A stretch of 64,000 bases of DNA from an uncultured Candidatus Binatia bacterium (GCA_965213675.1 OZ243916.1:3328001-3392000); one strand, 5' to 3'. Positions 38,415 to 53,994 are shown, counted from the stretch's first letter. The notes: a model not told the origin generated them from the sequence alone. A program made the numbers and translations.

Positions 38415-38548
38415 CCTGAAGGCGTCAGGTGTCCAGCGCCTTCGCCACATGGATATTTTGAAGTTATCTCTATTGCATGGTTATTATCCATGTATGGACG
38501 CTTTCAATGAAACATCACCTTGGTTTGTTTCGAAACTGTGCTATTTTA

Positions 38549-39391
38549 ATGGTAATGCGCCATCAAAGAACGCCACGTCTGAAACCACTCCTGGATGCGG
38601 TCCCCCCCGGCTTCATGGTGGACACGCGGTGGCTCAGGGCCCAGGGCATCGACCCCAAGTCCATCCACGACTATGTCGCCCGCGGATGGCTTGAGCGGGT
38701 TGTCCGCGGGGTCTACCGCCGTCCGCTGCCGGAAGGCGCACGGGGCGCCTACGGAGAATCCTGGGAAATCCCCCTTCTCTCCCTGCAATGGCTCATGAAG
38801 TACGCCGTGCATCTGGGCGGAGAGAGCGCCCTCGACGTGCTCGGCTACGCGCATTACCTGAGACTCGGAGAAAAGCCCCGCGTTTGGTTCTACGGCGAGG
38901 CGCCGTCCTGGATCAAGCGGCTGCCGATCGGGACGCAGATCGTGATGCGCCGGCGCACGCTCTTCGGCGACGACCCGCTGGGCATCGAGGATGCCGGTTC
39001 CGGGGCGGACGGACCGGCGGTCGGCGTGTGGCGCTGGCCTCTCAAGGCGTCGTCTCCGGAGCGAGCCGTCCTGGAGGCCCTTGACGAGCTGCCGCGGCGC
39101 GCCGGCTTCGAGAACCTGGACAAGGTATTCGAGGGGCTGGCGTCGCTCCGGCCCGGGCGGCTCATGGCGCTTCTGACGGCTTGCCGCAGCGTAAAGGTGC
39201 GCAGGCTGTTCTTTGTCTTCGCGGACAGGCACGGGCACGAATGGCGCAAGCACCTGGACGCATCGAGGATCGACTTCGGGTCGGGACCGCGGGCCTTGGT
39301 GGAGGGCGGCAGGCTTCACCCGGACTACCGCATCTACGTGCCCCGGGCACTGGCGCGCGGGAAACCTGCGGCGGCGGACGGCAATGCTTGA
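38549..39391 (+). CDS. Type IV TA antitoxin, AbiEi family
   Basis: N-terminal wHTH (WLERVVRGVY), SSPERA.LE, C.SVKV.RLF; overlaps toxin start. Confidence 0.85.
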   Translation: MVMRHQRTPRLKPLLDAVPPGFMVDTRWLRAQGIDPKSIHDYVARGWLERVVRGVYRRPLPEGARGAYGESWEIPLLSLQWLMKYAVHLGGESALDVLGYAHYLRLGEKPRVWFYGEAPSWIKRLPIGTQIVMRRRTLFGDDPLGIEDAGSGADGPAVGVWRWPLKASSPERAVLEALDELPRRAGFENLDKVFEGLASLRPGRLMALLTACRSVKVRRLFFVFADRHGHEWRKHLDASRIDFGSGPRALVEGGRLHPDYRIYVPRALARGKPAAADGNA

Positions 39392-40298
39392 CCGGTACGT
39401 GGCGCAGGTACGCCTGCTGCTGAGCGTGCTGCCGGACATTGCGGGGGAGACCGCGTTCGCGCTCAAGGGCGGCACCGCCATCAACCTGTTCCACAGGGAC
39501 ATGCCGAGGCTGTCCGTAGACGTCGACCTGACCTACCTGCCGGTCGCGGACCGCCGGTCGTCGCTTGAAGCAATCGACAGTACGCTCGACCGCATCGCGG
39601 CGGCGGTAACCGCCCGCAATCCGCGGCTCAGGGCGCGCCGCATCGCGGGCGGCGGGGACATCGGCACGCGCATCATGGTGAGCGATGGCCGCGCGCGGAT
39701 AAAGATCGAGACCTCCCCGGTGACGCGAGGGGCGGTGCATCCGGCAAGGCCGATGACCGTGTGCGAGAGAGTCACGGAGCAATTCGGATTCGCCGAAGCG
39801 AACGTGCTGGCCTTCGAGGACCTGTACGGCGGGAAGCTCCATGCGGCGCTCGACCGCCAGCATCCGCGCGACATCTTCGACGTCAGGCTCCTGTACGACA
39901 ACGAAGGCATGACGGACGGCCTCTTCCGCACGTTCATGGTCTATTTGGCGAGCTCGAACCGTCCGATGCATGAGCTCCTGGCGCCGGCGGCGCTTCCCGG
40001 AGAGGATCTGTACTACGAAGAGTTCGCCGGGATGACGCGCGAGGCGGTATCCAGGGATGAACTGGCCGACGCGCGAGGCCGTCTGCACGCCGACATCGCA
40101 TCGCGGTTGAAGGGCGACATCGCGGCGTTCCTGCTCTCCCTCCACGATGCGGAGCCCGACTTTGGCCTGATCGGCTTGCCCGAGGCCGTGAACCTGCCGG
40201 CCGTGCGCTGGAAATTGGTGAACCTGGAGAAGCTCAAGCGGGAAAATCCGTACAAGCACGCGGTGGAGCGCGAAGCGCTCGAAAACCTCTTCCGGTAA
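39384..40298 (+). CDS. Type IV TA toxin, AbiEii nucleotidyltransferase
   Basis: LKGGTAINL, RLSVDVDL, GKLHAALDRQHPRD.FD. Confidence 0.9.
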   Translation: MLDRYVAQVRLLLSVLPDIAGETAFALKGGTAINLFHRDMPRLSVDVDLTYLPVADRRSSLEAIDSTLDRIAAAVTARNPRLRARRIAGGGDIGTRIMVSDGRARIKIETSPVTRGAVHPARPMTVCERVTEQFGFAEANVLAFEDLYGGKLHAALDRQHPRDIFDVRLLYDNEGMTDGLFRTFMVYLASSNRPMHELLAPAALPGEDLYYEEFAGMTREAVSRDELADARGRLHADIASRLKGDIAAFLLSLHDAEPDFGLIGLPEAVNLPAVRWKLVNLEKLKRENPYKHAVEREALENLFR

Positions 40299-40680: not shown

Positions 40681-41142
40681 TCACAAGACGCCTCCCTGGC
40701 GAGGCTGCTGGTCGGCTGACCGCATGAGGTTGCGGTGTTCGCGCATCCGGTAGCTGTTCCCGCGGATGTTGACGATGTGGCAGTGGTGCAGGAGCCGGTC
40801 GATGAGGGCAGCAGCCATGACCTCGTCGCCGAGGACGCTGCCCCAGTCCTCGAAGCCCTTGTTGGAGGTGAGCACGGTGGAGGCGCGTTCGTGCCTGGCG
40901 TTGATGAGCTGGAAGAAGAGCACGGCGCCGTCCTGAGTGACGGGCAGGTAGCCGATCTCGTCCACCACGAGCAAGGCGGGATAGGTAAGGACCCGCAGCC
41001 GGCGGGAGAGCTCGCCTGCGGCCTTGGCCTCCAGCAGCGACTCGATCAGTCCGGCCAAGGTTCCGTAGTAGACGCGGTGGCCGGATTCGGCGGCGGCGAC
41101 GGCCAGGCTGATAGCAAGATGAGTCTTGCCGACCCCGGGCGG
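40681..41142 (-). pseudogene. istB: istB 3' fragment
   Basis: GVGKTHLA, VDEIGY, LTSN, DRLLHH, GNSYR. Confidence 0.9.
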
Positions 41143-41150
41143 ACCCGCCA

Positions 41151-41627
41151 CATATTGCCCGTTATCACGGTCGCGAGATAACCATTCGTTACCCGTTCCA
41201 TCCTCGTGCTGGCGAGACGATGGCGGTCATCCGGCGCCACCGGTTCCGTGGCATGAGCGTCTTCGTTGTCAGGCAGCCCGACGGAACGCTGGCGCAGATC
41301 CCTGCATGGATGTGCGCCACGGAGGCGGGCGCGATGTCGGTGACGAAGTCCCCACGCCTTCCAGTGGCCGAACTGCACACGCTTCGCATTACCGTCGACG
41401 CCCTTCTATCATCGCTCTCCAAACCCCCCAACGAAGGAGAGCCACATGGGCAAGAACGGGATTCGTCGTCAGAGAGATCTGCTGAAGCTGTTGGAGCCAG
41501 GGCCGGTGCTCGCACCGGAGTTGCTCAAGTCGGTCGTGCCGCTGCTGGCGACACTGCTGCTGCAAGCGGTGGAAGCCGAGGCGCAAAGCGCCGCGGAAAC
41601 GGTGACGGTGGAGGGAGCGAGCAATGA
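41151..41627 (+). CDS. Small accessory protein of the recombinase element (resembles Y4bD/DUF5372-type); natural start absent in integrated state
   Basis: IRYPFHP..G and DGTLAQIPAWM motifs; first in-frame ATG (41220) lies after YPFHP; family name from recall. Confidence 0.55.
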   Translation, partial: HIARYHGREITIRYPFHPRAGETMAVIRRHRFRGMSVFVVRQPDGTLAQIPAWMCATEAGAMSVTKSPRLPVAELHTLRITVDALLSSLSKPPNEGEPHGQERDSSSERSAEAVGARAGARTGVAQVGRAAAGDTAAASGGSRGAKRRGNGDGGGSEQ

Positions 41628-41631
41628 GTAA
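41446..41631 (+). CDS. Small hypothetical protein preceding the recombinase
   Basis: AGGAG RBS, 61 aa, overlaps recombinase start. Confidence 0.4.
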   Translation: MGKNGIRRQRDLLKLLEPGPVLAPELLKSVVPLLATLLLQAVEAEAQSAAETVTVEGASNE

Positions 41632-43577
41632 GGTCTCGGCCGATCATCTCTCCCGTAAGGCGTTTGTCTACATCCGTCAATCCACCCCGGACCAGTTGAG
41701 ACACAATCACGAGAGCCGGCGGCGGCAGTACGGCCTGACGGTGAGAGCCCGGAAGTTGGGATGGGGCGAGACGGTGGTGATCGACGAGGATCTCGGCCGT
41801 TCGGGCAGTGGCACGGCACGGCCGGGGTTCGAGCGGTTGTTGTTGGCGATCTGCGAGGGACGGGTGGGCATTGTCCTGGCGTTGGAGGCTTCACGCCTCG
41901 CCCGCAACGGCCGCGACTGGCACACGCTGCTTGAGTTCTGCGGGCTGGTGGGGTGTCTGCTCGCCGACGAGGAGGGCGTCTACGACCCGCGCCTGCCCAA
42001 CGACCGTCTCCTTCTGGGCATGAAAGGGACCCTGTCGGAGCTTGAGCTGTCCACGATGCGTCAGCGCTCGCTGGAGGCGCTGCGCCAGAAGGCGCGCCGT
42101 GGCGAGCTCCTGCTGAACGTCGCCGTGGGCTACGTGAAGGTTCCGCGAGACCGGATCGTCAAGGATCCCGACCGGCGCGTGCAGGAGGCGATCAGCTTGG
42201 TGTTCCGCAAGTTCTCAGAGTTCCAGAGCGTTCGGCAAGTCCATCTTTGGCTCCGTCAGGAGGAAGTGCTGCTGCCGGCAGTGGACGGCGAGCCGGGTGA
42301 CGGTGGAAGGCGGCCGCAAGCGGGTCAGCCGGGGCCATCGCCGGGACCGCGAGGCCTGGGACGTGTTGATCGTGGATCACCATGAGGGTTATGTTTCCTG
42401 GGAGGAGTTCGAGAGGAACCAGCGTTTGATCGCCGACAACGCCAACTGCAAGGGGTTGATGACACGGGGCGCGGTTCGCCGTGGCGATGCCCTGCTGGCG
42501 GGGCTCTTGCGCTGCGGTCACTGCGGCCGGCGGTTGCATGTTTCCTATAGCGGCACCGACGGCTACTGCGTTCGCTACAGTTGCCGCGGGGCGCACCTCA
42601 ACCATGGGACTCGGCGCTGCATCTCGTTCGGCGGCGTTCGTGTGGACTCGGCGGTTGCCGAGGAGGTGCTACGGCTGTTGAGCCCGTTGGGCATCGAGGC
42701 CTCGGTGGAAGCCGTGACGATGAGGGAGGACAACGTCGCCGAGACGCGGCGCCAGGTGGAGCTGGGTTTGACCCAGGCGCGCTACGAGGCGGATCTTGCG
42801 CGTCGCCAGTACGATGCGGTGGACTCGCAGAACCGGCTGGTGGCGGCGGAGCTCGAGCGCAGATGGAACGAGCGGCTGGCGGAGGTGGCGAGGCAGGAAG
42901 AGCGGTTGGCGGCCACGGCGGCTGTCCAGCCGGATGCCTTGTCCGGCGAGGACAGAGAGCGGCTGCTGGCGCTCGGGGGCGACCTTGAGACGGTCTGGGA
43001 GCACCCCGGCGCCACGGCGGAAACCCGCAAGCGGATACTGCGCGCGGTGCTGGAAGAGATCGTCGCCACCTCGGCCGAGGACCGTATCGAACTCCTGCTG
43101 CACTGGCGCGGTGGCGATCACACCCGCCTGAGCGTTGCCCGCAACCGCACCGGGCAACATCGGTGGCGGACCAGCGCGGAGGTCGGCGAGCTGATCCGCG
43201 GCCTTGCCCGACAGCAGCCGGACAGCGCCATAGCGGCCACGCTGAATCGGCTGGGCAAGCGGACCGGCCGCGGCAACGCATGGACGGAGATGCGGGTCCG
43301 CAGCTTCCGGTGCCATCACACGGTTCCCGTGTACCGGCCGGGCGAGATGGGGGAACGCGGAGAACTCACTCTCAAGGAGACTGCGGGCAGGCTCAGGGTC
43401 AGCACGATGACGGTCCTGCGTCTCATCAGCGCCGGAACGATTACGGCGCGGCAACTCTGCAAGGGGGCGCCCTGGGCGGTGCCGGAGGCGCAGATCACGG
43501 GACTCGAAGGCGCGGAGGTGGTTCCCCACCATCCGCTAACAGCCAACACGGATCAGAAAGAACTGGATTTCCAATAA
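41624..43577 (+). pseudogene. Large serine recombinase, frameshifted near 42290
   Basis: YIRQST catalytic Ser, DLGRSG, SRLARN; second frame carries CGHCG Zn ribbon, coiled coil and HTH; junction appears to lack the NPxYAG segment. Confidence 0.85.
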
Positions 43578-43609
43578 CGTAGAGAGGTGTGCATTATGAA
43601 GCCCGACTC

Positions 43610-43950
43610 GGCGGGCCGATAAAAATGACGTTTTCGCGGCGATCCAGGAAGCCGAGTTCGTGGAGGCTCTCGATCTGCTCGCGCTTGATGCTGGGCTGGA
43701 AGGCGAAGTCGAACTGGGCCAGGGTCTTCACGGCCGGCAGCCGCGACGAGCGCATGGCGGTCTGGAGGCGGCGGTTGTTGCGCAACCCGATCTGGGCGTC
43801 CAACAACTGCTCGATAGCCTCGCTGGCGGTGGCCGCCCCGCTGTCGGCCTGGGCCAGGACGTCGTCGACGGCCTCGAGCGCGCCCGGCATCTTCAGGTCC
43901 GCCAGCATCGCCCGCAGCCGGTCGCGCCGGTTGCCTGCCTCGGCCCTCAT
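43610..43950 (-). pseudogene. istB: istB 5' fragment
   Basis: KTLAQFDFAFQPSI...ENVIFIGPP; ATGA overlap with istA. Confidence 0.9.
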
Positions 43951-44969
43951 GACACGGCCTCCGCATAGGCGCTGAGCGAGCGCCGCTCGACGTCTACGGT
44001 GACGGGCAGGGGGCGCCGGGCTTGCTGTGGAAGCGTGTGCATACCAAGGCGCCGATACGGGCAACTCGCCAACGGCAGCAGCGCCTGTAGCTCGTCACGC
44101 TCGAAGCGGTCCACCGGGCGCTCCCTGGTGGTGCCGTGCCAGCGCCGGTTCGCGGTTCCCTCAAGCCACAAGCGCACCTGCTCGTTCAGGTCCTCGTCGT
44201 TCAGGAACTCCCGGCCGTAGAAGAAGTTGTTGCGGATGTAGCGGATCGGGCGCTCCACCTTGCCCTTGGTTTGGGCTCGGTACGGCCGGCATGCCCGAGG
44301 CCGGAACCCCCAGTGCGCGGCGAACCGTAAGAAGTCCGCGTTCAACACCAACTCGCCCCCGCCCGCGCGGCCGTCCGACACCACCACCGAACGCATCTGG
44401 TCGAACTACAGCTCCTGCGGCACCCCGCCGAAGCACTCGAAGGCGCTCTCCAGCCCTTCGATCAGCACTGCCATCGTCTGCCGCCTGTAAAACCGCAGCC
44501 ACAACAGCCGGGAGTGGCTCAGAACCGTCACCAGAGCGTGCCGCCGCCCCCAGGGAAGCGTGAACGTCGCAAAGTCCACCTGCCCCTGCCGTCCCGCCGG
44601 CGTCTCGAACCGCACCACCGCCTCCGCCGTCTCCCGCGGCCGTACCGACCGAACGTACTCCCTCACACGGACGTACCCGCCCGTGTACCCCGCCCCTCGT
44701 ACCTCGTCGTATAGCCGCTTCGCCGACAACCGCGGATACTCCTCCAGTCGCGCCTCGATGATCCCCTTGTACGGATCCAGCTTGTGACACACCGCCGGTC
44801 TCGCCCTGTACCGCGTCCCGCCTCCCGACAGATCCCGGTCTAACTGCCCCGTCTCCACCCACTCGTGGATCGTCCGGCGACTCACCCCGAACCGCCGCGA
44901 CAGCTCCGTCTTCGTTACACCCCGTTCCAGATAGTGCCTAAGCAGCATCCTCGTCTCCCATCCGTGCAT
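43947..44969 (-). pseudogene. istA: IS21 transposase IstA with in-frame TAG at 44406-44408
   Basis: RFETPAG.QGQVDF, PQEL*FDQM, KGKVER; both ORF halves share a frame. Confidence 0.9.
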
Positions 44970-45089
44970 CTGTGCTCCGCTCCGTTCCTGTTGCTCTTGC
45001 CAACAGCGTGGACCCGAGCACTCACACCGGCAATCAATCTGTGCAGTTTTCGATTGCCATAAATGGGAAATTTACAGTTGCCACCAACA

Positions 45090-45285
45090 ATCCACACCAA
45101 ACCGTCGCGACAACTCCGCCCTGGTCACGCCTCGTTCCAGATAGTGCCTTATCAGCATCCTTGTCTCCCATCCGTGCATCAGTTCGCCGCTCCATTCCTG
45201 TTGGCTTTTCCCAACAGACTGGCCAACGTACACCTCCTCGCAATCTTCTATGTGCGACATCTTCGATTGACACAAATGGGACATT
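45090..45285 (-). pseudogene. Left-end relic of a second (outer) IS21 with the first ~30 istA codons
   Basis: MHGWETRMLIRHYLERGVTRAELSRRFGV (ATG 45179) duplicates the inner istA start; truncated IR 45252-45285. Confidence 0.8.
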
Positions 45286-45617: not shown

Positions 45618-45812
45618 ATGGCGAGAAAACCCACGATCCGCGAGCTTGAACAGCTCTTGGAGTCCGAAGAGGATACCCCCATCGAAATACTGCCGAACGG
45701 CGAGATTCGCGCCCGGGGGGGGAGCGATGCCGCAGAGCGGGGCTACAAGAAGCCTCTCACAATGCGAGAGGACCTCGGCGGCGAGTATGGGCGAGGGGGG
45801 ATCCGGGCATGA
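45618..45812 (+). CDS. 64-aa small protein, candidate peptide modifier
   Basis: Strong GAGGAGG RBS, ATGA coupling to next gene; C-terminus DLGGEYGRGGIRA. Confidence 0.75.
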   Translation: MARKPTIRELEQLLESEEDTPIEILPNGEIRARGGSDAAERGYKKPLTMREDLGGEYGRGGIRA

Positions 45813-46183
45813 ATCTGACAAGGGTTCGCCATGAGATCGCGGCCGCTCAGCAGTACTTCGACTACGTGGAGGGCCATCCAACCCCTGAAGGAGGCGTGAT
45901 TGCGTTGATCGCCTTGCAGACAAGCAGGGATGTGTACACGATGGCCGTCTCCTTCCCGGAGTCTTACCCGAACGGGATGCCGGAGGTGCATGTCAGGAGG
46001 CCCGCGTTGCGACCATCTCCCCACAGGTACACGGACAACAAAATCTGTTTCTTGCATCCGCGCATGTGGAACCCGGGGCGCCACAACCTCGCGTTCGTGA
46101 TTCAGCGAGCGGCGAAGTGGTTCGCGAAGTACGAGGTATACCTCGAGACAGGAAAATGGGCCGGCGTCGAAATTAAGCACTAG
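45809..46183 (+). CDS. Prokaryotic E2/UBC-like protein
   Basis: FPESYP..MP, PHRYTDNKICFL, WNP: UBC YP...P / H-x7-C / W.P pattern. Confidence 0.75.
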   Translation: MNLTRVRHEIAAAQQYFDYVEGHPTPEGGVIALIALQTSRDVYTMAVSFPESYPNGMPEVHVRRPALRPSPHRYTDNKICFLHPRMWNPGRHNLAFVIQRAAKWFAKYEVYLETGKWAGVEIKH

Positions 46184-46187
46184 TACG

Positions 46188-46718
46188 ATGGCGATCGAAT
46201 TCAAGCCATTGCCGATGATGGCATTGCGAAGCAGGCCCGGCGAGGTCCTGGATGAGGTGTCCCGAGATGGCGCAGCGTTCCTCATCGAGAGAAACGGGCA
46301 ACAGAAGGCTTGTCTTGTACCGATATCGTACTTCCTTCCAGACATTCAGACGTCCCGCGTCGCGGAGGAGTTGGACAAGATCATCGACTCGAACGAGCAC
46401 TACCGGATCACAATCAGCGGCCAGCGGGAGATTCAACTCATATTCCGGGAGTTCAGTGGCGAAACGCAGGTCGACGTGACGGTAACGCTACCCCACGGCT
46501 ATCCGAACAAAGCGCCGGTTGTATACGCGGCGCCGATCGATGACGGGTGTCCACACCGTTGGCCGGATGGGACGTTGTGCATATACGGTGCCGTAGCTGT
46601 GTGGAACCCAGGAAAACACGACGTGATGCACGCGGTGGCGCTGTTCAGACGGTGGATCCAGCACTACTCGGTTTGGCGGCAGGCCGGACAATGGCCGACG
46701 GAGGGAACTGAACCATGA
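46188..46718 (+). CDS. Phd/YefM-like DNA-binding domain fused to an E2/UBC-like domain
   Basis: N-term LRSRPGEVLDEV..DGAAFLIERNGQQKACLVP; C-term LPHGYP..AP, PHRWPDGTLCIY, WNP. Confidence 0.7.
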   Translation: MAIEFKPLPMMALRSRPGEVLDEVSRDGAAFLIERNGQQKACLVPISYFLPDIQTSRVAEELDKIIDSNEHYRITISGQREIQLIFREFSGETQVDVTVTLPHGYPNKAPVVYAAPIDDGCPHRWPDGTLCIYGAVAVWNPGKHDVMHAVALFRRWIQHYSVWRQAGQWPTEGTEP

Positions 46719-47566
46719 AGGGTCGGTTGTTCGCGAGGATCGAACAGCTATTCGATGTGAAGGCGTTCGAAGACCTTTGGGTGTTGATTGCAGGGTGCGG
46801 ATCGGGCGGTGGCCAAGTGGCGCTGCAGTTGGCCATGTCTGGAGTGAAGAAGTTCATCCTGGCGGACACGGATAAGCTGGAAGTGGAAAATGTTATCCGG
46901 CACGTCTGCGGGATCCGGTACCTGGGTTGGAAGAAGACGGCGGCCCTTGCTGACGTCTTGAGTGACCGCAACCCGCAGATCGAAGTCAAAGAATTTTACG
47001 GCGACGTAACAGCGTGGCCGAGACTGGCAGAGGAGGTCGAGCGCGCGAGCGTTGTAGTCTTGGGGACGGACAACGAACCGAGCCGGTATCGGCTGAACGA
47101 GGTCTGTGTGGAAACGGCGACGCCGTTCACGGTTGGTCGAGTCTTTACGCGAGGAATTGGGGGTGAGGTGTACTCCTACAGGCCCGGGATCGGCGGCTGC
47201 CTGGCCTGCCTTGAGGGGCTTCTTGAGCGGAGCCAATACCGCGACGGTGTCAGGGAAATCGACCTCGTTTCGGAGGAGGAGCGGCAGAAGGTGTACGACC
47301 TTGAAATCGAGGAGATCAAGGACTCGCCCGGCCTATCGGTGGATATCGGGTTCATCGCAGCCTTCCACACGCGGTTCACTTTGGACGCACTGGGCCACGA
47401 AGCGGAGTCCCCACCTAAGTTTATGACGCCGATCGACCATAACTACCTAGTGTGGGGAAATCGAGCCGTGTACCCGTTCTCGAAGAACTTCGAACTGCAG
47501 CGCATGAAGCTGCCACCGCAGGACGGATGTCTGGTTTGTGGAGGACAAGATGAAGGCCAAGAGTAA
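46715..47566 (+). CDS. ThiF/MoeB-family E1-like adenylyltransferase
   Basis: GCGSGG, D.D...N..RH, K, GTDN..SR, Zn pairs CLAC and CLVC. Confidence 0.88.
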   Translation: MKGRLFARIEQLFDVKAFEDLWVLIAGCGSGGGQVALQLAMSGVKKFILADTDKLEVENVIRHVCGIRYLGWKKTAALADVLSDRNPQIEVKEFYGDVTAWPRLAEEVERASVVVLGTDNEPSRYRLNEVCVETATPFTVGRVFTRGIGGEVYSYRPGIGGCLACLEGLLERSQYRDGVREIDLVSEEERQKVYDLEIEEIKDSPGLSVDIGFIAAFHTRFTLDALGHEAESPPKFMTPIDHNYLVWGNRAVYPFSKNFELQRMKLPPQDGCLVCGGQDEGQE

Positions 47567-48467
47567 GGTGCGGGAGGTACGCTTGGAGATCCCGGGAGTC
47601 GTCCTGGAGAGCGTGTTCGAGGAGTGCGACCGCTATGACCGCGAAGAGACGGGGGGGCGCGTGGTAGGCCATTTCACCATAGATTTCGGGACGCTGGTGG
47701 TGCACGTCGGGGGAGTGATTGAGCCGGGTCCAAATGCCCACCGCACAAGCACCAGCTTCTTTCAAGACGGCGATCACCAAGCTGAGGTGTTCCGCCAACT
47801 CGAGGCGGAAGACCCATCGATCGAGCATCTTGGCAACTGGCATACACATCATGTGAACGGATTTCCGAGGCTGAGTGCAGGCGACGTGGCGACCTATCGC
47901 CGGATCGTGAACCACCAGTTACACAACCTGGATTTCTTCTACGCATTGCTTGTGACGAATAGAAACGAAGGCCGGACCGGACTGGACCGATATGCAGTAC
48001 GGCACCACGTGTTGTTTCGTGGTGAAGAGGCCGTCCACGAAATCCGACCGGCCGATGTACACGTAACGGTCGGGCCGAGGATCTGGCCAAAGGAGGCAGA
48101 CTCTTCCACACAAGCTCCTGGCGCAGGTGGCGCAGAGGACGACGGGGCGCGCGGGATTGTTGAAGTACGGGGGCGGGACCAAAGTGTCCTAGGCGTGCTG
48201 TGCCCCTCGATGGAACCCCGGGTGTCAAACCAAACGGGAACGTTCTTTTGGAAGGGTTCGCTGCCGTTAATCGACGGGTCCACGGTAGAGATTCGGGTCG
48301 CCGAAGTCGAAGACGACGGCGGACTGCTCTACTACCCCATCGTCTCAGGCGTGTCGGCGGATGTGGCTGAGTTGTGCGAAACACCATTCCCGAGCGCGTC
48401 CCACGCGGTCCGTGCGTTGGAGTCGCAGATAAATCGGGAGATTTACGAGTCCGCGATAAGGCGGTGA
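47550..48467 (+). CDS. JAB/MPN metalloprotease with C-terminal extra domain
   Basis: EETGG, GNWHTHH...LSAGD JAMM motif; GGAGG RBS before ATG 47550. Confidence 0.82.
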   Translation: MKAKSKVREVRLEIPGVVLESVFEECDRYDREETGGRVVGHFTIDFGTLVVHVGGVIEPGPNAHRTSTSFFQDGDHQAEVFRQLEAEDPSIEHLGNWHTHHVNGFPRLSAGDVATYRRIVNHQLHNLDFFYALLVTNRNEGRTGLDRYAVRHHVLFRGEEAVHEIRPADVHVTVGPRIWPKEADSSTQAPGAGGAEDDGARGIVEVRGRDQSVLGVLCPSMEPRVSNQTGTFFWKGSLPLIDGSTVEIRVAEVEDDGGLLYYPIVSGVSADVAELCETPFPSASHAVRALESQINREIYESAIRR

Positions 48468-48477
48468 GGGCCAAAAT

Positions 48478-49302
48478 ATGGAAGTGTTGACGCTTTACGT
48501 CGGACAAGGGAATTTCGCCGTCATCCGCCACGGTAGGCAGGCTATCGCAGTGGACACTCGGTGGCTTGCTGACCAATCAGACGATATCGAGTCGACGGTG
48601 GGCCGCTTCCTGCAACGGCGGGAACTTGTGGGCGTCGTGTTGACCGGGTTTGATGACGATCACGCCGATCCCGTCGGGCTGGACTGGTTTCTTGAGAACT
48701 ATACGCCCGGCTGGGTGATGTACCCAAAATACTACAAGGATACCGACAACGCGGAAGCGGTCTTCAACGTGGTTCGGAAGCACGAGCGGCGTCGCCAGGG
48801 CACAGCAAACCCGCTTGAGCGCGTTTCTGTACGGCTTGATCGGCTGGAGTCCCGGTACCTCGATGATCTGTCGGAGGAATTCCAGCTAGAGTTGTTCTCA
48901 CCCCACGTCGAGGACATGGACAGCTCTAACAACTGCAGCATCGTGCTGAAGGTGGAAGGAATCGGTCCGGGCGGATTTACATACTTGGTTACGGGCGACA
49001 CGGAGGTCCCCCGGTGGGACCGGATCGTCCAACTTTTCGACGACGCGTTGGACTCGGACGTTCTGGCGGCGCCACACCACGGATCGAAAAACGCCGCTCA
49101 CCCTGGGATGGTCTTGGCGGTCACACCGAACACGGTGCTTATCAGCGCGGGAGTCGACAACCAGTACGGGCACCCGGACAGAAAAGCGGTGCAGTTGTAT
49201 CTGCGGGTGGCGAAGCGCGTATTTCGGACAAACGTGCGGAACGGAATTTCGCTTCTCACAAGGCGAAACGGCGGGGAGTTCCAGACTACCCGTGTGCGTT
49301 AA
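48478..49302 (+). CDS. Metallo-beta-lactamase-fold hydrolase (ComEC/Rec2-like)
   Basis: VGQG, TGFDDDH, NNCS, TGD, APHHGS, NQYGHP. Confidence 0.85.
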   Translation: MEVLTLYVGQGNFAVIRHGRQAIAVDTRWLADQSDDIESTVGRFLQRRELVGVVLTGFDDDHADPVGLDWFLENYTPGWVMYPKYYKDTDNAEAVFNVVRKHERRRQGTANPLERVSVRLDRLESRYLDDLSEEFQLELFSPHVEDMDSSNNCSIVLKVEGIGPGGFTYLVTGDTEVPRWDRIVQLFDDALDSDVLAAPHHGSKNAAHPGMVLAVTPNTVLISAGVDNQYGHPDRKAVQLYLRVAKRVFRTNVRNGISLLTRRNGGEFQTTRVR

Positions 49303-49462
49303 CGGTCGATGGAATTTTCTTCTGCCCATTGGCGCCACCAACATCCTGGCGCTCTTAGGCGAGCCCTAGACTGAATGATTGGGAACACTTCCAATGCGTT
49401 GGGGCTCTTCAACACAACGGTGTGGAACGGGAAAAGCCCAAACAACCCGAGAGGAACGAATT

Positions 49463-50587
49463 ATGACCTTTGAACTACCAACACGCGGGCTCGTTTTTTG
49501 GCCAGTCGGAAACGGTGACAGCACCACCATCGTCATCGACCCCAAGACCTGTCTCCAGATAGACCTCAACCACCTCGAGAAATCCGAGGACGACGACGCC
49601 TCTTGGCCCGTGGTTGATGAACTTGTCAAGCACCTGCCCAAAGTCAACCGCCGCCCCTATCTCGCTGCGTTCGCGCTCACACATCCTGATCAGGACCATT
49701 GCCGGGGCTTCGCCAAACTCCTCAACGAAGTCGATATCGGTGAATTGTGGTTTACACCTAGAGTGTTCCGTGAGTACAAGAAGGACCTCTGCGACGACGC
49801 GGTGGCATTCAAGAAGGAGACGGAACGCCGCGTTCAGAAGGCTATCGACGCCAAGCACGCCCCAGGCTCGGGCGACCGCATTCGGGTCTTCGGCTACTCC
49901 GACCTGCTGGAAGAGGACGACTTCAAGGATTTCCCCAAGGATCGCCTAACTGTCCCCGGTAATGAACTTACCGTCGTCGACGAGAAGGACTTGGCTGGCC
50001 ACTTCCGCGCCTTCGTCCACGCTCCGTTCAAAGATGATGACGCGGGCGAGCGGAACGATACGAGCCTCGCCATGCAAGTCACGCTCCACGCTGGCCCGCA
50101 AAGACTTCGCGCGCTCCTTCTTGGAGACCTTCCCTACCCGATCATCAAGCGCATCTTCGCGATTAGTGACGCCGAGGACCTCGCCTGGAATGTGCTCCTC
50201 GCACCCCACCACTGCTCGAAGGCCGTAATGTACTGGAAGAATGACGGCGACGACGACGAGAAGCTCAAAAAGCACATCGTCGACGAAATGGACGAGGCGG
50301 CACAGGACCCGAATCGTGTCGTATCCAGCTCCAATCCCGTGCCGTCATCCAACAAGGCTGGCGACAACCCGCCTCACGCCAAGGCAAAGACGCAGTACGA
50401 GACCATCACCGACTCCTTCCTGTGTACGATGGACCAGGATGAACCTATCGTGGCTGAACTTGACCACCAAAGGATCGTTCTCGCCGGGGTTGCGACGGCC
50501 TCCAAGTCCGCATCGCAGGCCGCAGACGAAGCGCGCGGCTCAAACAGACCCCCCGACGGCGCCCACACCTACGGCTGTGGCAAATGA
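49463..50587 (+). CDS. Metallo-beta-lactamase-fold protein of the type found beside E2-E1-JAB fusions
   Basis: VGNGDS, THPDQDH, NDTS, GD, APHHCS, PPH; C-terminal tail HTYGCGK; GAGG RBS before ATG 49463. Confidence 0.85.
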   Translation: MTFELPTRGLVFWPVGNGDSTTIVIDPKTCLQIDLNHLEKSEDDDASWPVVDELVKHLPKVNRRPYLAAFALTHPDQDHCRGFAKLLNEVDIGELWFTPRVFREYKKDLCDDAVAFKKETERRVQKAIDAKHAPGSGDRIRVFGYSDLLEEDDFKDFPKDRLTVPGNELTVVDEKDLAGHFRAFVHAPFKDDDAGERNDTSLAMQVTLHAGPQRLRALLLGDLPYPIIKRIFAISDAEDLAWNVLLAPHHCSKAVMYWKNDGDDDEKLKKHIVDEMDEAAQDPNRVVSSSNPVPSSNKAGDNPPHAKAKTQYETITDSFLCTMDQDEPIVAELDHQRIVLAGVATASKSASQAADEARGSNRPPDGAHTYGCGK

Positions 50588-53500
50588 GTAATGGCTACAC
50601 GCTCGCTGGCGAACAGCTAAGGGAGATCGCCGAAACATCGGAAGGCACCGTTCAAATTCATGACGAAACCACACGGCCAAGCGGCTACCGCCAGTTCGAC
50701 GTAAGCATGCGCTTCGACGGCCTTCAACGTGTCGAAGACGGACTTGCAGTGCGAGCCCGTGAGCCATTCCGCGTCATTGTTTCACCTGCCTTCCCTTTCA
50801 AACATCCCGTTGTCGAGACGCCTCACTCTCGTTTCGCCGGCTTCCGGCACGTACAGTGGCGGCGGAGCCCCTGCCTGTACCAAAGCTCCTCCGATTGGGG
50901 CCCAAGCGACGGCATGTACGGCTTCATTACGCGCCTCGACGCCTGGATACGCGACGCCGCACTTAACAATCTCGACCCGGACGACGCACCCCTCCACCCA
51001 CCAGTCGAGTACCCCACGGTCCATCGCCTAATTGTGCCCAAGGCAAATACGCCGGCGGTCTCTGGCACGCCATGGTTTGGATTCGCCAAACTCCGCGAAA
51101 GGAACCATCGCACCGAGATCATTGGATGGGAAGAGAACAGCCAAGAAGGCTCTGACTTCGCGCCTGCAATCCTCCTCCACGAGAATCTTCCCTTCGAATA
51201 CCCCGAAACTGTCCACGCTCTACTGAAAGAACTCGAATTCCACGGAATCGACTATGTGCCCTTTGTCTTCCGACTTGCCGCCCAGGCACGACGCAGCGAC
51301 GCAGGCACACCGCTAACCGTAGTTCTTGGAACTCCGATGCGCCGCGTCGACCCGGGGGGGCCTACCCTTCAGCACTTGGCCGTGTGGGAGATTTCTGCCG
51401 ACGACGCGGACAAGCTGCGCGAGCTGAACATCTCCGCGCAGTTCCGCGGGTCACCGCGATGGGAAGCCGCGACGACGGCGGTCGCCGAATGGGCTGTGTT
51501 TGCCAAGGTGGGGTGGTGCATCGTCCGTGAGATGCGGCCCGAAGTGACCAGCAGACGCGACCATTCATCAGCCATGGCTTGGTTTCGTGGAAAGCGTGTG
51601 GCCATCTGGGGTTGCGGCGCCGTAGGCACTCACGTGGCGGAATCGATTGTACGCGCCGGGGCCAGAACCGTTGAACTCGTCGACAACAAGACTGTTGCAC
51701 CCGGTCTCCTAGTACGGCAAGTCTTCGAAGACGCCGACATCGGAGAGTTTAAGGCCCAAGCGCTCGCCGAACGACTTAAACGGATCGAACCTGACCTCGA
51801 GACACATGTTTCAACCGACGACCTTGTCCTACGTATCATAGGTCCACACCCGGTCCCGGAGGTGGACTTGATAGTCGACTGCACAGCTTCATCGGCCGTT
51901 CAGACAGCCCTCGAGCGAGCACTCCAGGCCGTCGACTCACGCCCCGCGATAGCTGCTGTATCCATCGATAGCCAAGCCGCCACGGCCATTGCCACTCTCT
52001 CTTCGCGCAACCACAGCGGTGCGACCCTCGACCTTGTTCGCCGGCTCAAGCTGGAAGCATGTAGCACACCGGCGCTTTCGAAGGTCCTTGAGGCATTCTG
52101 GCCAAGAACAACGCCAAGTGAGCGCTTTCAGCCAGAGCCCGGCTGTTCGGAACCGACGTTCATCGGTTCCGACGCAGATCTTGCCGCGCTATCTGCGCGC
52201 ATGCTGAATTCCATCACTCACGCTATTGGAAACCCCCGCGATGGCCACACGGGGGCAGGTTGGTTGTTGGAAGAATCGGGAGCGTTACGTGGTTTCGCGT
52301 GGCCTCCGGACCACACCCTGAGGGATGAGGGGCGGGGCTACTCCGTCAGGGTATCTTCACTGGCCGCGCGGGAAATGCGAGGATGGGCTAGGCGTTCCGC
52401 ACGTACGGTCGGCTCAACAGTCGAGACGGGCGGCCTCGTCTTCGGCGAGCTCAACGAAGCCGCGACCGTTCTCTGGGTAACAGATGTCGAGGGACCGCCA
52501 CCCGACAGCGAGGCAGCTGGGGATCATTTCACCTGCGGCACGGACGGCATGGAAACCGTTGCCCAAGAAAGGCAACGCAGGTTCCGTGGATCTGTAGACT
52601 GCCTCGGTAGTTGGCACACCCACCCAACGTCAGCACCCCATCCAAGTCGCGTCGACATCGGCGCTGTCATACAGCTTCTCGCCAACCCGGGTTCGACCCG
52701 TCGAACTTGCCTTGTTTTGATCCTCTCTGGTGACCCGGATGACCCAAGACTGGGCGCGTATGCCTTCAGAACAAAACTAGTCGGCGAAACGCTCATCCGC
52801 ATCCAACCAAGCGCGGCTGCAACCGCGTCCCTTGGGCCAAAGCCAAAGAAACCGCGCAACATCGGAACTGCCCTCTCAGGCGGAGGCTCGCGCGCCATCG
52901 CGTTCCACCTCGGGTGCCTGCGCGCCCTGCACGACCTCGATCTACTCAGCCGTGTTCAGGTAATTTCGAGCGTCTCCGGCGGGTCTATAATCGCGGCCAT
53001 GTACGCCTATTCTTGCGACTCGTTTCGGGAGTTTGACGCGCGTGTTGTAGAGCTTCTTCATCGAGGATTCAAACGGGATATCTTCCGCGAGGTGTTCAAG
53101 CTGGTTTCAATTGGGAAGATCCTGCGACGCCATGTCAGGGCGACCGCGTCTTTCCTATCTCGCACGTTCCTTCGGCTACTTCACGCCGTCGTGAGACCGG
53201 TTGTGGCTCATCGCCAAGGCCCGCCGCCGACCCGCACGTTCAGCCGCACGGAGGCGTTTCGCGACATCATTGCCACCTCCCAATTCGGTGACACCATCGT
53301 ACGCGACGTCGCCCGACATTCACTCCATACGGTCATCAATGCCACAGAACTACGAACCGGCTCCGCATTTCGGTTCGGAAGCAGCCAAAGCGGCTGCTGG
53401 CGATTCGGCACGATTCCCCCCGAAGACGCTCTGGTTGCAGACGCCGTGGCTGCCTCGGCGGCGTACCCGGCACTCTTCCCGGCACTCGAGCGCGAGTACC

Positions 53501-53994
53501 GCTTCACGAAGAACGGGTCCAGCACCGATGCCGCGCGCGTTCTGCTTACCGACGGTGGGGTCTTTGAGAACCTCGGCGTGAATCCGATGGAGCCGGGCCG
53601 GACACCTTCGGTCACCACTAACGTCTTCGACCCCGACTACATTATTTGCTGCGACGCGGGTGCTGGTCTATTCGATGATGACAGCTACCCGACACGTTTG
53701 CACACCCGGATATACAGATCGTTCCTCACGGTCTTTCGCAAGGTCCAAGACGCCACCCGAAAACGCCTACACCACCTTGCCGACGCCGGGGAAATCTCCG
53801 GCTTCGCGTTATGCTATCTCGGGCAGCAGGACAATGCCTTGCCCTGGGTACCAGCAGGTCTTCCTAGAAGGGATGAGGTTCGAGATTACCCTACCGACTT
53901 CGCCGCGATGTCAACGGAAGACGTCGATCGGTTAGCTCTCCGTGGAGAACTCCTGATGAGGCTTCTCGTTGCGTACTACCTCCCAGACCTCTAA
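50584..53994 (+). CDS. E2-E1-JAB-patatin four-domain fusion
   Basis: E2: FPFKHP, HVQW..SPCLY; E1: GCGAVG, DCTAS, EPGCSEPTF; JAB: ETGG, WHTHP....PS.VD; patatin: LSGGGSR, SSVSGG, DGG. Confidence 0.85.
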   Translation: MSNGYTLAGEQLREIAETSEGTVQIHDETTRPSGYRQFDVSMRFDGLQRVEDGLAVRAREPFRVIVSPAFPFKHPVVETPHSRFAGFRHVQWRRSPCLYQSSSDWGPSDGMYGFITRLDAWIRDAALNNLDPDDAPLHPPVEYPTVHRLIVPKANTPAVSGTPWFGFAKLRERNHRTEIIGWEENSQEGSDFAPAILLHENLPFEYPETVHALLKELEFHGIDYVPFVFRLAAQARRSDAGTPLTVVLGTPMRRVDPGGPTLQHLAVWEISADDADKLRELNISAQFRGSPRWEAATTAVAEWAVFAKVGWCIVREMRPEVTSRRDHSSAMAWFRGKRVAIWGCGAVGTHVAESIVRAGARTVELVDNKTVAPGLLVRQVFEDADIGEFKAQALAERLKRIEPDLETHVSTDDLVLRIIGPHPVPEVDLIVDCTASSAVQTALERALQAVDSRPAIAAVSIDSQAATAIATLSSRNHSGATLDLVRRLKLEACSTPALSKVLEAFWPRTTPSERFQPEPGCSEPTFIGSDADLAALSARMLNSITHAIGNPRDGHTGAGWLLEESGALRGFAWPPDHTLRDEGRGYSVRVSSLAAREMRGWARRSARTVGSTVETGGLVFGELNEAATVLWVTDVEGPPPDSEAAGDHFTCGTDGMETVAQERQRRFRGSVDCLGSWHTHPTSAPHPSRVDIGAVIQLLANPGSTRRTCLVLILSGDPDDPRLGAYAFRTKLVGETLIRIQPSAAATASLGPKPKKPRNIGTALSGGGSRAIAFHLGCLRALHDLDLLSRVQVISSVSGGSIIAAMYAYSCDSFREFDARVVELLHRGFKRDIFREVFKLVSIGKILRRHVRATASFLSRTFLRLLHAVVRPVVAHRQGPPPTRTFSRTEAFRDIIATSQFGDTIVRDVARHSLHTVINATELRTGSAFRFGSSQSGCWRFGTIPPEDALVADAVAASAAYPALFPALEREYRFTKNGSSTDAARVLLTDGGVFENLGVNPMEPGRTPSVTTNVFDPDYIICCDAGAGLFDDDSYPTRLHTRIYRSFLTVFRKVQDATRKRLHHLADAGEISGFALCYLGQQDNALPWVPAGLPRRDEVRDYPTDFAAMSTEDVDRLALRGELLMRLLVAYYLPDL

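Follow-up and report, generated by a model that had tools for sequence, protein, structure and literature searches.

A DUF5372 gene most likely split by the attachment site of a large serine recombinase element and whole only on the excised circle

The window analysed here is a 64,000-nt stretch of DNA from an uncultured Candidatus Binatia bacterium (GCA_965213675.1 OZ243916.1:3328001-3392000). Positions 41138-43614 are occupied by a small mobile element of 2.47 kb, driven by a site-specific large serine recombinase (LSR), in which the genes follow the order DUF5372 gene, small overprinted ORF, LSR gene (Table 1). The element interrupts an IS21 istB gene at the codons for its Walker-A motif. 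Matches to Pfam IstB_IS21 were found on both flanks, one over 40681-41151 (E 1.4e-54, profile positions 98-236) and the other over 43594-44064 (E 5e-21, profile positions 2-101). Remnants of istA lie upstream in two frames (43947-44396 and 44406-44969), giving the arrangement by which the IS21 family is recognized, a gene for the IstB helper ATPase adjoining istA. This host IS21 has decayed as well.

When the element and one copy of the core are removed in silico, the sequence G-P-P-G-V-G-K-T is rebuilt in istB, and because an uninterrupted Walker-A motif is thereby restored, 41138 and 43614 are taken to be the true ends. The duplicated core, the imperfect inverted repeat and the precise restoration of the target are those of an LSR element. 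Symmetry and comparison with relatives place the crossover most likely at the dinucleotide GG at 41138-41139. The left arm of the inverted repeat ends in CATATTGC in the window and in CATACTGC in relatives, and the CAT at 41151 within it is the His codon at which protein homology starts.

Table 1. The element and its surroundings; positions are counted from the first nucleotide of the window
Feature	Position	Strand	Basis or remark
Left flank: istB C-terminal part, from the Walker-A G-x-G-K-T codons on	40681..41139	-	Pfam IstB_IS21
attL copy of the 5-bp core GGCGG	41138..41142	+	pentamer repeated at both ends
Left arm of the recombinase-binding inverted repeat (predicted)	41140..41158	+	arm alignment
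DUF5372 frame without a start of its own	41142..41627	+	Pfam PF17342; domain to ~41440, then variable tail to TGA 41625-41627
61-aa ORF overprinted on the DUF5372 tail in another frame	41446..41631	+	own AAGGAG Shine-Dalgarno
LSR gene, N-terminal part: catalytic Resolvase domain and start of the Recombinase domain	41624..42287	+	Pfam Resolvase E 3.7e-24
LSR gene break	42288..42296	+	~39 codons absent relative to intact relatives, frame shifted
LSR gene, C-terminal part	42297..43577	+	Pfam matches; TAA stop 43575-43577
GAGGTG, Shine-Dalgarno-like	43584..43589	+	6 nt upstream of ATG
Right arm of the inverted repeat, starting GCATTATG	43591..43609	+	contains ATG 43596-43598 and first codons M-K-P-D-S
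attR copy of the core GGCGG	43610..43614	+	pentamer repeated at both ends
Right flank: istB N-terminal part	43612..44064	-	Pfam IstB_IS21
istA transposase remains of the host IS21-type IS	43947..44969	-	ORFs, weak HTH and rve matches

The LSR gene of the window is in two pieces, which align with residues 1-221 (80% identity) and 261-686 (69% identity) of the intact 686-aa LSR of a relative, locus L001. The N-terminal frame continues out of register to 42385. The C-terminal part holds the end of the Recombinase domain, the zinc ribbon, the coiled-coil region and a C-terminal HTH_17, and Pfam matches to Recombinase (E 5.2e-06) and Zn_ribbon_recom (E 3.9e-09) were obtained with the pieces. The LSR of another intact relative (L045) matches Resolvase, Recombinase, zinc ribbon and HTH_17, the domains expected of an LSR. 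Since its LSR gene carries a frameshifting deletion, the window copy is dead; it is inert on its own and cannot run a switch by itself.

A first-pass annotation of this DNA had proposed that excision assembles a gene from the two ends of the element, and the core, ribosome-binding site, ATG, stop and ORF on which it relied were all found where it had placed them. The right-end ATG follows the LSR stop by 18 nt and lies 14 nt short of the crossover; the GAGGTG before it is complementary to CACCUC at the 3′ end of 16S rRNA. At the left end, the frame containing the motifs YPFHP and IPAWM is open from 41115 to its TGA. In the integrated state this frame was said to have a stop at 41112 and no ATG, GTG or TTG before 41220, and this is the case: the stop is TAG, and the first such codon is the ATG at 41220. 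Reading from 43596 through a single copy of the core and onward from 41143 keeps the DUF5372 frame, in agreement with the claim that the joined ends bring the right-end ATG into frame with the YPFHP/IPAWM ORF. In the window, as in 63 junctions built from relatives of its element, codons 5 and 6 of the junction ORF lie on opposite sides of the crossover. The match of the window ORF to PF17342 is marginal, scoring 26.2 bits where the curated cut-off is 25 and taking in profile positions 1-45 of 78; a close relative of the protein carries a precomputed PF17342 assignment.

As the annotation itself had pointed out, an ATG will be in frame by chance one time in three, and homologues were needed. 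Relatives of the window element, here called family 1, were found by a tblastn-type search with a 13-sequence alignment (A2), and their right ends were located by a motif scan. Choosing right ends by the best reverse complement of the left arm gave noisy scores (13-17 of 24) and picked wrong sites. Of the 80 loci for which downstream sequence exists, 65 have the right-end motif, and it was also found in three loci at contig ends; the other 15 of the 80, in which the scan did not find it, are truncated copies, rearranged copies or contig ends. All 68 loci with the motif have a start codon, ATG in 67 and GTG in one, at a distance of 14 nt from the crossover. Many intact copies occur in some genomes, among them a Paraburkholderia genome (loci L043-L054) and that of P. 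xenovorans LB400 (L074). Among 50 distinct sequences the codon is ATG in 49 and GTG in one; it is preceded by AGGTG in 36 and by AGATG in 8, and the Shine-Dalgarno sequence is weaker than AGGTG in 14. Protein homology sets in 13 nt from the crossover with the His codon, at which the tblastn matches begin in most loci, and a three-base periodicity of conservation starts at the Arg codon of H-T-A-R-Y. The distance from start to motif is 21, 22 or 25 codons, always in frame.

Junctions were built with a single fixed excision geometry, in which the left-hand crossover precedes the His codon by 13 nt and the right-hand one follows the A of the ATG by 14 nt. The frame was open into the DUF5372 domain in all 63 buildable junctions, a count to be read knowing that the frame in family 1 is set by this fixed 27-nt geometry and that the 65 loci are not 65 independent tests, 50 being distinct and many related or identical. 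The ends are validated by the restoration of the target, since removal in silico rebuilt a Walker-A motif (G..G.GK[ST], 47 loci) or a tyrosine-recombinase box (10 loci) in 57 of the 63 testable loci. IstB formed 39 of 49 distinct left flanks of the relatives, all beginning at profile position 102. Four short contigs start or stop within 1 nt of the predicted boundaries. In a search for circle junctions, no terminal overlaps were found in the short contigs examined, which break off at the limits of the element. In 9 of 63 loci the dinucleotide at attL is not the one at attR, an uncommon situation for LSRs.

It could be held that the window element is a dead relic whose in-frame ATG is a coincidence, given its broken LSR, the decay of the host IS21 and the one-in-three chance that a random ATG falls in frame. 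But start, spacing and frame are shared by intact relatives across several phyla, and by a second family described below. The comparison goes beyond chance and already contradicts this explanation, which can hardly be right.

The ATG also lies inside a conserved inverted repeat, GCATTATG being mirrored by CATACTGC, and its conservation may derive in part from recombinase binding. Taken to its limit, this would make the ATG and the purine stretch merely an attP arm recognized by the LSR; the frame would follow from half-site symmetry and DUF5372 would be translated in some other way. Consistent with such a by-product, ATG and CAT mirror each other in the conserved inverted repeat of 8-12 bp, and the spacing is invariant in family 1. 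Stop codons in the nine junction codons could not separate coding from non-coding sequence: of 50 distinct sequences, none had one in frame 0, 40 had one in frame +1 and none had one in frame +2, frame +2 being as open as frame 0 and the stops in frame +1 being due to ATGA. The two arms are not conserved alike, which is difficult to reconcile with binding by the recombinase as the sole cause. AGGTG is kept in the right arm and not in its mirror (A in 48/48, G in 44/48, G in 39/48, T in 46/48 and G in 47/48 distinct sequences), as fits pairing with the anti-Shine-Dalgarno sequence, and of the 48 distinct sequences 47 retain the A of the ATG but 38 its mirror base.

Further evidence on this point came from seven distant elements (family 2) of Alpha- and Betaproteobacteria and Rhodococcus, which are inserted in DDE-transposase genes and have an HTH gene between the DUF5372 and LSR genes. 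The right end reads (G/A)AGGTGCAGT followed by a start codon in 7/7. All seven junctions are in frame, and excision restores the DDE-transposase motif in each. The layout is that of the window, with the crossover inside a predicted coding sequence of the element in 7/7. The distance from start to domain is 25, 26 or 28 codons, again always in frame. The left arms of these elements have TCA, TCA, CGC, GCA, TCG, AGG and GCA in place of the CAT mirror, yet the right-arm start is retained in all seven. Wherever the distance from arm to domain varies, in either family, it does so by a multiple of three, and no other start is conserved. An origin of the junction start as a by-product of recombinase recognition is, on these grounds, unlikely. 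In RefSeq plasmids the family-2 genes are labelled 'DUF5372 family protein', with PGAP starts that are inconsistent and in some cases downstream of the conserved motif. The check proposed in the first-pass annotation, circularization of homologous elements, thus found ribosome-binding site, start codon and frame kept in family 1 and in 7/7 of family 2. An internal start upstream of YPFHP in the homologues, or a junction frame that was not conserved, was to have counted against the proposal; no internal start is conserved among the homologues, and the junction frame is kept.

No conserved start was found in the integrated state among the 50 distinct family-1 elements examined. Between the upstream stop and the His codon, 32 have no in-frame ATG, GTG or TTG, and 18 have some start-type codon; in 8 of these it is a GTG or TTG that arises at codon -4 and has no Shine-Dalgarno sequence before it. 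These upstream starts are scattered and lack a Shine-Dalgarno sequence, except for one 329 codons upstream; between the left arm and YPFHP, scattered start-type codons occur in 6 of the 50. Some integrated copies might make a protein. The DUF5372 gene is left unannotated by PGAP in L001 and in a second relative, L002. A promoter scan, with the joined sequence inspected by eye only, detected nothing resembling a sigma-70 site at the element's right end in the window, and the sole promoter-like site in the scan is internal (41383-41412, + strand). What the junction brings together is a Shine-Dalgarno sequence and ATG with an ORF, instead of the -35 and -10 halves of a promoter. The proposal that the full accessory protein is made only from the excised circle draws support from the conserved start, Shine-Dalgarno sequence and frame, and to judge from the sequences the DUF5372 gene is most likely whole only on the circle.

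At the protein level the DUF5372 domain is conserved, with 711 representatives at E<=1e-3, and its structural model is confident (mean pLDDT 87.8). When the model was compared with PDB folds, weak matches to ribosomal protein eS4 were the only ones (best E 5.4e-3, TM 0.36), and a profile search of PDB sequences gave one match, at E 0.099, and no solved relative. A model of the complex of DUF5372 with the LSR scored 0.70, compared to 0.00 for the best of 3 controls. Of 157 solved complexes 116 attain this mark, as do 2 of 215 mismatched pairs; with the custom alignments used here, these figures apply only roughly. Agreement in contacts between runs was at least 93%, and partner pLDDT at least 72. 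Since DUF5372 has no solved relative by sequence or fold, the result is unlikely to reflect memory of a solved complex. The model docks DUF5372 against the zinc ribbon and the coiled-coil base of the LSR; among the LSR residues at this predicted interface, W530, G532, G533, D534, H535 and T536 do not vary across the alignment.

The zinc ribbon and base of the coiled coil of LSRs are where known directionality factors act, and the predicted contact would also suit a classical factor, expressed at attL thanks to initiation that is weak or non-canonical, or to read-through out of the flanking sequence, for which the junction start would be irrelevant. The start-type codons upstream in 18 of the 50 elements could be used in this way, but they vary in position and all but one are without a Shine-Dalgarno sequence; the other 32 elements have none. 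PGAP, moreover, omits the gene in L001 and L002 and is inconsistent in its starts in family 2. A classical factor independent of the junction is accordingly very unlikely.

The DUF5372 TGA overlaps the LSR ATG in the window (ATGA), and stop and start overlap as ATGA or GTGA in 59 of 66 distinct loci; in two family-2 elements it is the LSR stop that overlaps the junction ATG. In most relatives an ORF of 55-66 aa with shared motifs occupies the place of the 61-aa ORF, and in L001 and L002 PGAP calls it a hypothetical protein. That the small ORF is spurious was ruled out by its conservation and its own Shine-Dalgarno sequence. The DUF5372 frame remains open over it in 60 of the 60 loci analysed, 5 of 65 having been set aside beforehand, versus ~19 expected from a simulation of codon usage, which argues against a tail that is a chance open frame. 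The overlaps at both ends of the LSR gene, and a frame open far beyond expectation, would be in keeping with a leader or coupling device, in which ribosomes on the DUF5372 frame finish at the LSR ATG and raise recombinase on the circle, the protein being secondary. Several observations speak against this. DUF5372 is conserved and confidently modelled as a protein and is predicted to bind the LSR, the HTH gene of family 2 stands between the two genes, and the LSR has its own GGAGG upstream, because of which coupling is not required for its translation. It is improbable that the frame serves chiefly as a leader.

The explanation that best covers the whole, and is probably correct, is a DUF5372 gene split at the junction and rejoined on the circle, whose product tunes the LSR while the element is free. 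Integration would separate the ORF, at the left end, from the Shine-Dalgarno sequence, ATG and five codons at the right end, and excision as a circle, or a head-to-tail tandem, would reunite them. The circle would be a closed loop, running from the LSR gene through a short spacer to the rejoined DUF5372 gene and back into the LSR gene. Because the DUF5372 stop overlaps the LSR ATG on this loop, the excised state would yield full-length DUF5372 and probably more LSR. DUF5372 would then tune the LSR on the free element, most likely favouring or licensing re-integration, by which its gene would be split again and turned off. The anatomy and ends of the element and the conservation of start, Shine-Dalgarno sequence and frame are matters of observation; expression from the circle and an effect on recombination are inferred from them. 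A switch of directionality or re-integration is likewise suggested, with help from the predicted interface between DUF5372 and the LSR. A factor made only after excision cannot be its trigger, a timing opposite to that of classical directionality factors, and its effect could run in either direction.

The insertion targets seen were the Walker A of IstB and of Lon, the K-x-x-V-E motif of DDE transposases and a conserved tyrosine-recombinase box. A broader reading, whose chances are somewhat short of even, is that DUF5372-LSR elements are a widespread superfamily of hyperparasites that home into DNA encoding catalytic motifs, in genes of other mobile elements and in some host genes, and sense their excised state by a rejoined start, the product binding and directing the recombinase; they would then represent a new class of excision-state switch. 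By entering short conserved coding motifs of other transposable elements they knock them out, an unusual relation of parasite to parasite.

In the literature, no paper was found on DUF5372 or PF17342. At the level of titles and abstracts, no paper was found that describes a start codon split by attP or links a large serine recombinase with IstB, nor any relevant one on insertion of a serine recombinase element in IS21, istA or Walker A. The main text of a preprint surveying LSRs (10.1101/2021.11.05.467528) contains neither 'IstB' nor 'Walker'.

Mobile elements must act differently when integrated and when free, and they are known to achieve this by promoters that form when the circle closes or by directionality factors induced while the element is integrated. 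In the present elements the coding sequence itself appears to hold the switch, the att site parting the gene from its ribosome-binding site and start, so that the protein would report the excised state only. If this is true, an uncharacterized Pfam family gains a role as partner of an LSR, the tendency of annotation to miss the DUF5372 gene or to start it wrongly is explained, and nature would have provided a compact state sensor for enzymes widely used in genome engineering.

Among the closest parallels are Tn4451 and Tn4453, whose LSR, TnpX, excises them as circles in which the joined ends create an expression signal for an element gene. The likeness lies in an LSR-driven element whose joined ends form such a signal. 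In Tn4451 and Tn4453 a promoter is assembled that serves the recombinase, whereas here a coding sequence is split, with Shine-Dalgarno, ATG and five codons on one side and the ORF on the other, and the gene is that of the accessory DUF5372. In the IS911/IS3 family, IS30, IS21 and IS110/IS1111, a circle or tandem junction transiently turns on the element genes; these are DDE or DEDD transposases that join -35 and -10 halves, whereas here a start codon is joined to an ORF. The directionality factors of serine integrases (Bxb1 gp47, phiC31 gp3, SPbeta SprB) are accessory proteins that bind the LSR and bias the direction of the reaction, as DUF5372 may do if it binds at the predicted place, close to the zinc ribbon and coiled-coil base. 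Those factors trigger excision, whereas the predicted timing of DUF5372 is reversed, coming after excision, and it has no relation in sequence or fold to solved proteins.

State-dependent expression from ends joined only in the circle is also described for Pcirc of ICEclc and P3'end of ICEKp1 (PMC13023037). These are ICEs with tyrosine recombinases in which a 3′-end promoter reads across attP into an intact int, and no gene is split. The 'suicidal' integrases of the SSV type have the att site within their own gene, which is whole only on the free circle (PMC8371274). They resemble the present elements in having the recombination site inside a gene of the element, which integration fragments. 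They differ in that an archaeal tyrosine integrase is itself split in mid-gene, whereas the elements described here are bacterial LSR elements in which an accessory gene would be divided, with only the start and five codons set apart.

The element interrupts a single IS21-type istB gene, the two halves of which flank it on the minus strand (Pfam IstB_IS21, E 1.4e-54 and 5e-21), exactly at the Walker-A codons. Removal of the insert together with one core copy in silico gives an unbroken G-P-P-G-V-G-K-T in istB. Between crossovers the insert is 2472 bp long and holds three genes, all on the plus strand: a frame encoding DUF5372, a small ORF and a large serine recombinase (LSR) gene. The first-pass annotation had described a GGCGG core at both ends and a ribosome binding site with ATG at the right end, and these were found where it had placed them; the GAGGTG and ATG lie 18 nt past the recombinase gene stop. 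It had also stated, correctly, that the frame containing YPFHP and IPAWM is preceded by a stop at 41112 (the codon is TAG), has no ATG, GTG or TTG before 41220, and is entered in phase from the right-end ATG through one core copy when the ends are joined. In an intact relative the LSR has 686 aa, and the two pieces align to its residues 1–221 and 261–686, which means a loss of about 39 codons and a shift of frame. Judged by its sequence, this copy is unable to mobilise itself, and its host IS21 is decayed as well, with istA split over two frames.

Features of the element and its surroundings (window positions)
Feature	Position	Strand	Remarks
AbiEi antitoxin/AbiEii nucleotidyltransferase toxin pair	38477-40298	+	Type IV toxin-antitoxin; adjoins IS21 remnant; Pfam E 1e-37, 2.8e-39
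DUF5372 frame (YPFHP, IPAWM)	open 41115 to TGA 41625-41627	+	PF17342, 26.2 bits vs cut-off 25
GGCGG core, left	41138-41142		
His codon CAT	41151		Start of protein homology
Sigma-70-like promoter match	41383-41412	+	In DUF5372 frame, just upstream of small ORF; only plus-strand match of the element
Small 61-aa ORF	41446-41631	+	Own AAGGAG
LSR gene, two pieces	break and frameshift near 42288-42296	+	From alignment to intact relative
GAGGTG	43584-43589		
Right-end ATG	43596-43598		
GGCGG core, right	43610-43614		
ORF resembled at its start by the next fragment	44406-44969		
Second IS21 istA-type N-terminal fragment	45072-45284	-	
Ubiquitin-like conjugation gene cluster	45809-53994	+	ThiF (E1-like) and Prok-JAB genes; 1136-aa fusion of Prok-E2_A, ThiF, JAB and patatin phospholipase

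The second istA-type fragment suggests, from its sequence, nested or duplicated IS21 remnants. The conjugation gene cluster looks like a defence-island module beside mobile elements.

Relatives were gathered by searching proteins exhaustively with the DUF5372 portion as query (711 representatives at E<=1e-3), by blastn against plasmids (265 records) and by scanning genome contigs with an alignment of 13 sequences (80 loci, L004–L083). Among the blastn matches, a Skermanella plasmid copy (L001) has an intact LSR; it shows 72.8% identity across 85% of the query. Plasmids were also searched by tblastn, the query being a protein annotated as 'DUF5372 family protein' (96 records), and nine loci of a second, distant family (L084–L092) were examined. 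Comparison with these relatives showed the anatomy of the element and the conservation of its layout at the level of sequence. The same istB site is occupied in the chromosome of a Thermodesulfobacteriota MAG (L004, 4997–6000), where the DUF5372 protein is 93% identical and the copy is truncated about 170 codons into the LSR. In a single Paraburkholderia genome the element is present in at least 12 identical copies (L043–L054) with two kinds of istB flank (2 + 10 copies); either many copies of the same IS21 were hit, or an interrupted IS21 was multiplied in trans. Two elements have odd sizes between validated ends: L012 measures 1502 bp, having an internal deletion, and L061 measures 5142 bp, with additional DNA inside and a left flank matching Transposase_20.

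Protein homology starts at the His codon, which lies within a highly conserved left-end motif, CATACTGC. The conserved right-end motif takes in the final LSR codons and continues through GAGGTG-N-GCATTATG. The two are mirror images, GCA(T/G)TATG, each 11 nt from the central dinucleotide. The crossover accordingly falls 13 nt upstream of the His codon at the left end and, at the right end, 14 nt downstream of the A of the ATG. These cut points were tested apart from the reading-frame question, by the target motif regained after excision in silico. Among 63 testable loci, 47 regained a minus-strand G..G.GK[ST] and 10 a plus-strand conserved tyrosine-recombinase box; of the six that regained neither, one has too short a left flank, one is apparently shifted by a base, and one, by eye, resembles the tyrosine-recombinase box outside the search pattern. 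The ends of four short contigs coincide, to within 1 nt, with the predicted boundaries. The central dinucleotides of attL and attR were unequal in 9/63 loci (L005, L010, L014, L023, L025, L038, L074, L075, L082), always at one of the two positions. A matching central dinucleotide is considered a requirement of large serine recombinases, so that a mismatch is unexpected; recombination into degenerate targets with tolerance of mismatches is one possible cause, subsequent mutation another.

The first family inserts, by its flanking sequences, in the Walker-A codons of AAA+ genes. In 39 of 49 distinct left flanks the ORF was IstB, in all cases from profile position 102. Four were Lon protease genes in Vicinamibacterales MAGs (L024, L026, L028, L030), one was Mg-chelatase ChlI-like (L080), one matched Transposase_20 only and four had no match. 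The Lon and ChlI-like flanks indicate that host genes as well as IS21 are knocked out. A subgroup (L059, L064–L067, L070, L071, L073, L077, L078; probably L063 and L068) is inserted in sense orientation in the tyrosine-recombinase box I-R-V-I-Q-x-L-L-G-H, with central dinucleotide CT. In a few database proteins the recombinase N-terminus is joined to DUF5372 in a frameshifted fusion. The second family (L084–L088, L090, L091), with central dinucleotide TT, is inserted at the codons for K-x-x-V-E in genes of DDE transposases (IstA and others); this motif holds the catalytic glutamate. Taken together, on the evidence of these sites, the two families target the catalytic-motif DNA of other mobile elements.

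The proposal that the gene is completed at the joined ends had been made contingent on homologues, and the right-end ribosome binding site, start and junction frame proved to be kept among relatives of both families. In the first family the right-end motif was present at 65 of the 80 loci with downstream sequence (the window, L001 and 78 genome loci), and at three more at contig ends; the other 15 of the 80 are truncated copies, rearranged copies or contig ends. The start codon was ATG in 49 of 50 distinct right ends and GTG in one, preceded by AGGTG (36/50), AGATG (8/50) or a weaker stretch (6/50). From this start to the YPFHP-type motif there were 22 codons in 40 of 49 distinct sequences, 21 in eight and 25 in one, a whole number in every case. 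The three-base period of conservation begins at the Arg codon of H-T-A-R-Y, and DUF5372 coding, as read from these alignments, extends to the element boundary.

An internal start in homologues would have spoken against the proposal, and no conserved one was found in the integrated state among 50 distinct elements. In 32 of these the stretch from the upstream stop to the His codon had no ATG, GTG or TTG in frame. Codon -4 was GTG or TTG in eight, formed by the crossover base and the first two arm bases, and in the remainder start-type codons were scattered in flanking DNA. Only one start-type codon among the 50, 329 codons upstream, had a Shine-Dalgarno-like sequence. RefSeq annotation has no DUF5372 gene in L001 or L002, which is weak evidence since the gene table omits pseudogenes.

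The main rival explanation is that the ATG is retained only as part of a recombinase-binding site. It is weakened by the asymmetric conservation of the two arms. AGGTG, the complement of the anti-Shine-Dalgarno CACCU, is conserved in the right arm only, the mirror positions of the left arm being different. Of 48 distinct sequences, 47 retain the A of the ATG and 38 retain its mirror base. The second family also argues against it. These DUF5372-HTH-(small ORF)-LSR elements of 3.3–3.5 kb are annotated on plasmids of Bradyrhizobium, Microvirga, Mesorhizobium, Caballeronia, Rhodococcus, Sinorhizobium fredii NGR234 and Paraburkholderia phymatum. Both ends were available for seven of nine loci, L089 and L092 having no LSR or right end in the stretch examined. 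All seven right ends read (G/A)AGGTGCAGT, then a start codon, 11 nt and TT; in one, GTG is followed directly by ATG. Excision in silico regained a DDE-transposase motif (IstA and others) of the P-x-x-P-x-D-K-A-K-V-E kind in 7/7, with the junction ORF in frame in 7/7 and 25, 25, 25, 28, 25, 26 and 28 codons from the start to the H-P-F-H-P motif. Since the left arms lack the CAT mirror (TCA, TCA, CGC, GCA, TCG, AGG, GCA), the start codon is not retained merely as half of a palindrome. PGAP starts for these DUF5372 genes are inconsistent, some falling on a GTG immediately ahead of the motif and others downstream of it.

The DUF5372 frame continues about 146–162 codons beyond the His codon; in 59 of 66 distinct loci its stop and the LSR start share bases, as ATGA or GTGA. 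Its last 55–65 codons overprint the small ORF, which in relatives is conserved, acidic, 55–66 aa long, with common motifs and its own Shine-Dalgarno sequence, and which terminates a few bases beyond the start of the LSR; no Pfam match was found for it. The DUF5372 frame was open over the small ORF in 60/60 loci versus about 19/60 expected by chance, a significance overstated because the loci are related. The simulation drew small-ORF codon choice from the LSR codon usage of each locus, and five of 65 distinct loci had been left out beforehand (four with ORF lengths outside 140–165 codons, one whose small-ORF frame contains a stop). A second rival, which may hold alongside a protein function, is that the frame mainly couples translation into the LSR. 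The LSR carries its own GGAGG. The promoter match within the DUF5372 frame could drive the small ORF and LSR when the element is integrated. It is conceivable that the small ORF encodes the true excision factor, and that its translation is disturbed by ribosomes reading the DUF5372 frame.

The model of the window's DUF5372 domain (mean pLDDT 87.8; alignment of 47 sequences) has a disordered N-terminus, a small beta-sheet domain and then a long helix. Among solved structures no informative relative was found by fold or by sequence. A modelled complex of the intact LSR of L045, one of the Paraburkholderia copies, with its DUF5372 domain scored 0.70 versus 0.00 for the best control; the mark for such scores, approximate here as own alignments were used, is reached by 116/157 solved complexes and 2/215 mismatched pairs. 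Runs agreed in at least 93% of contacts, with partner pLDDT at least 72. In the predicted contact the DUF5372 helix and F-H-P turn face the LSR zinc ribbon (333–338), residues 387–400 and residues 472–537, taking in the invariant W530, G532, G533, D534, H535 and T536. The model supports, but does not show, binding of DUF5372 to the LSR.

Integration would thus part the Shine-Dalgarno sequence, ATG and five codons from the remainder of the first gene, and excision would rejoin them. On the circle the genes would form a closed, translationally linked loop; in the second family the LSR stop overlaps the junction ATG in two elements. Full-length DUF5372, and probably extra LSR, would therefore be made only while the element is free. 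We infer such expression from the circle and an effect on recombination, DUF5372 acting on the LSR. The favoured role is to license or favor re-integration, which would itself end the signal.

In the open-access literature searched, no description was found of a bacterial serine-recombinase element with an accessory gene parted from its start codon by attP, of a function for DUF5372, or of LSR elements targeting IstB, DDE-transposase or tyrosine-recombinase motifs. In Tn4451 a circle-junction promoter serves TnpX, and insertion sequences use junction promoters. ICEclc and ICEKp1 have promoters active in the excised state (PMC13023037), and the gene of SSV-type integrases of archaea is split by its own att site (PMC8371274). 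State-dependent expression through joined ends is thus already known, being common to Tn4451, ICEclc, ICEKp1 and insertion sequences.
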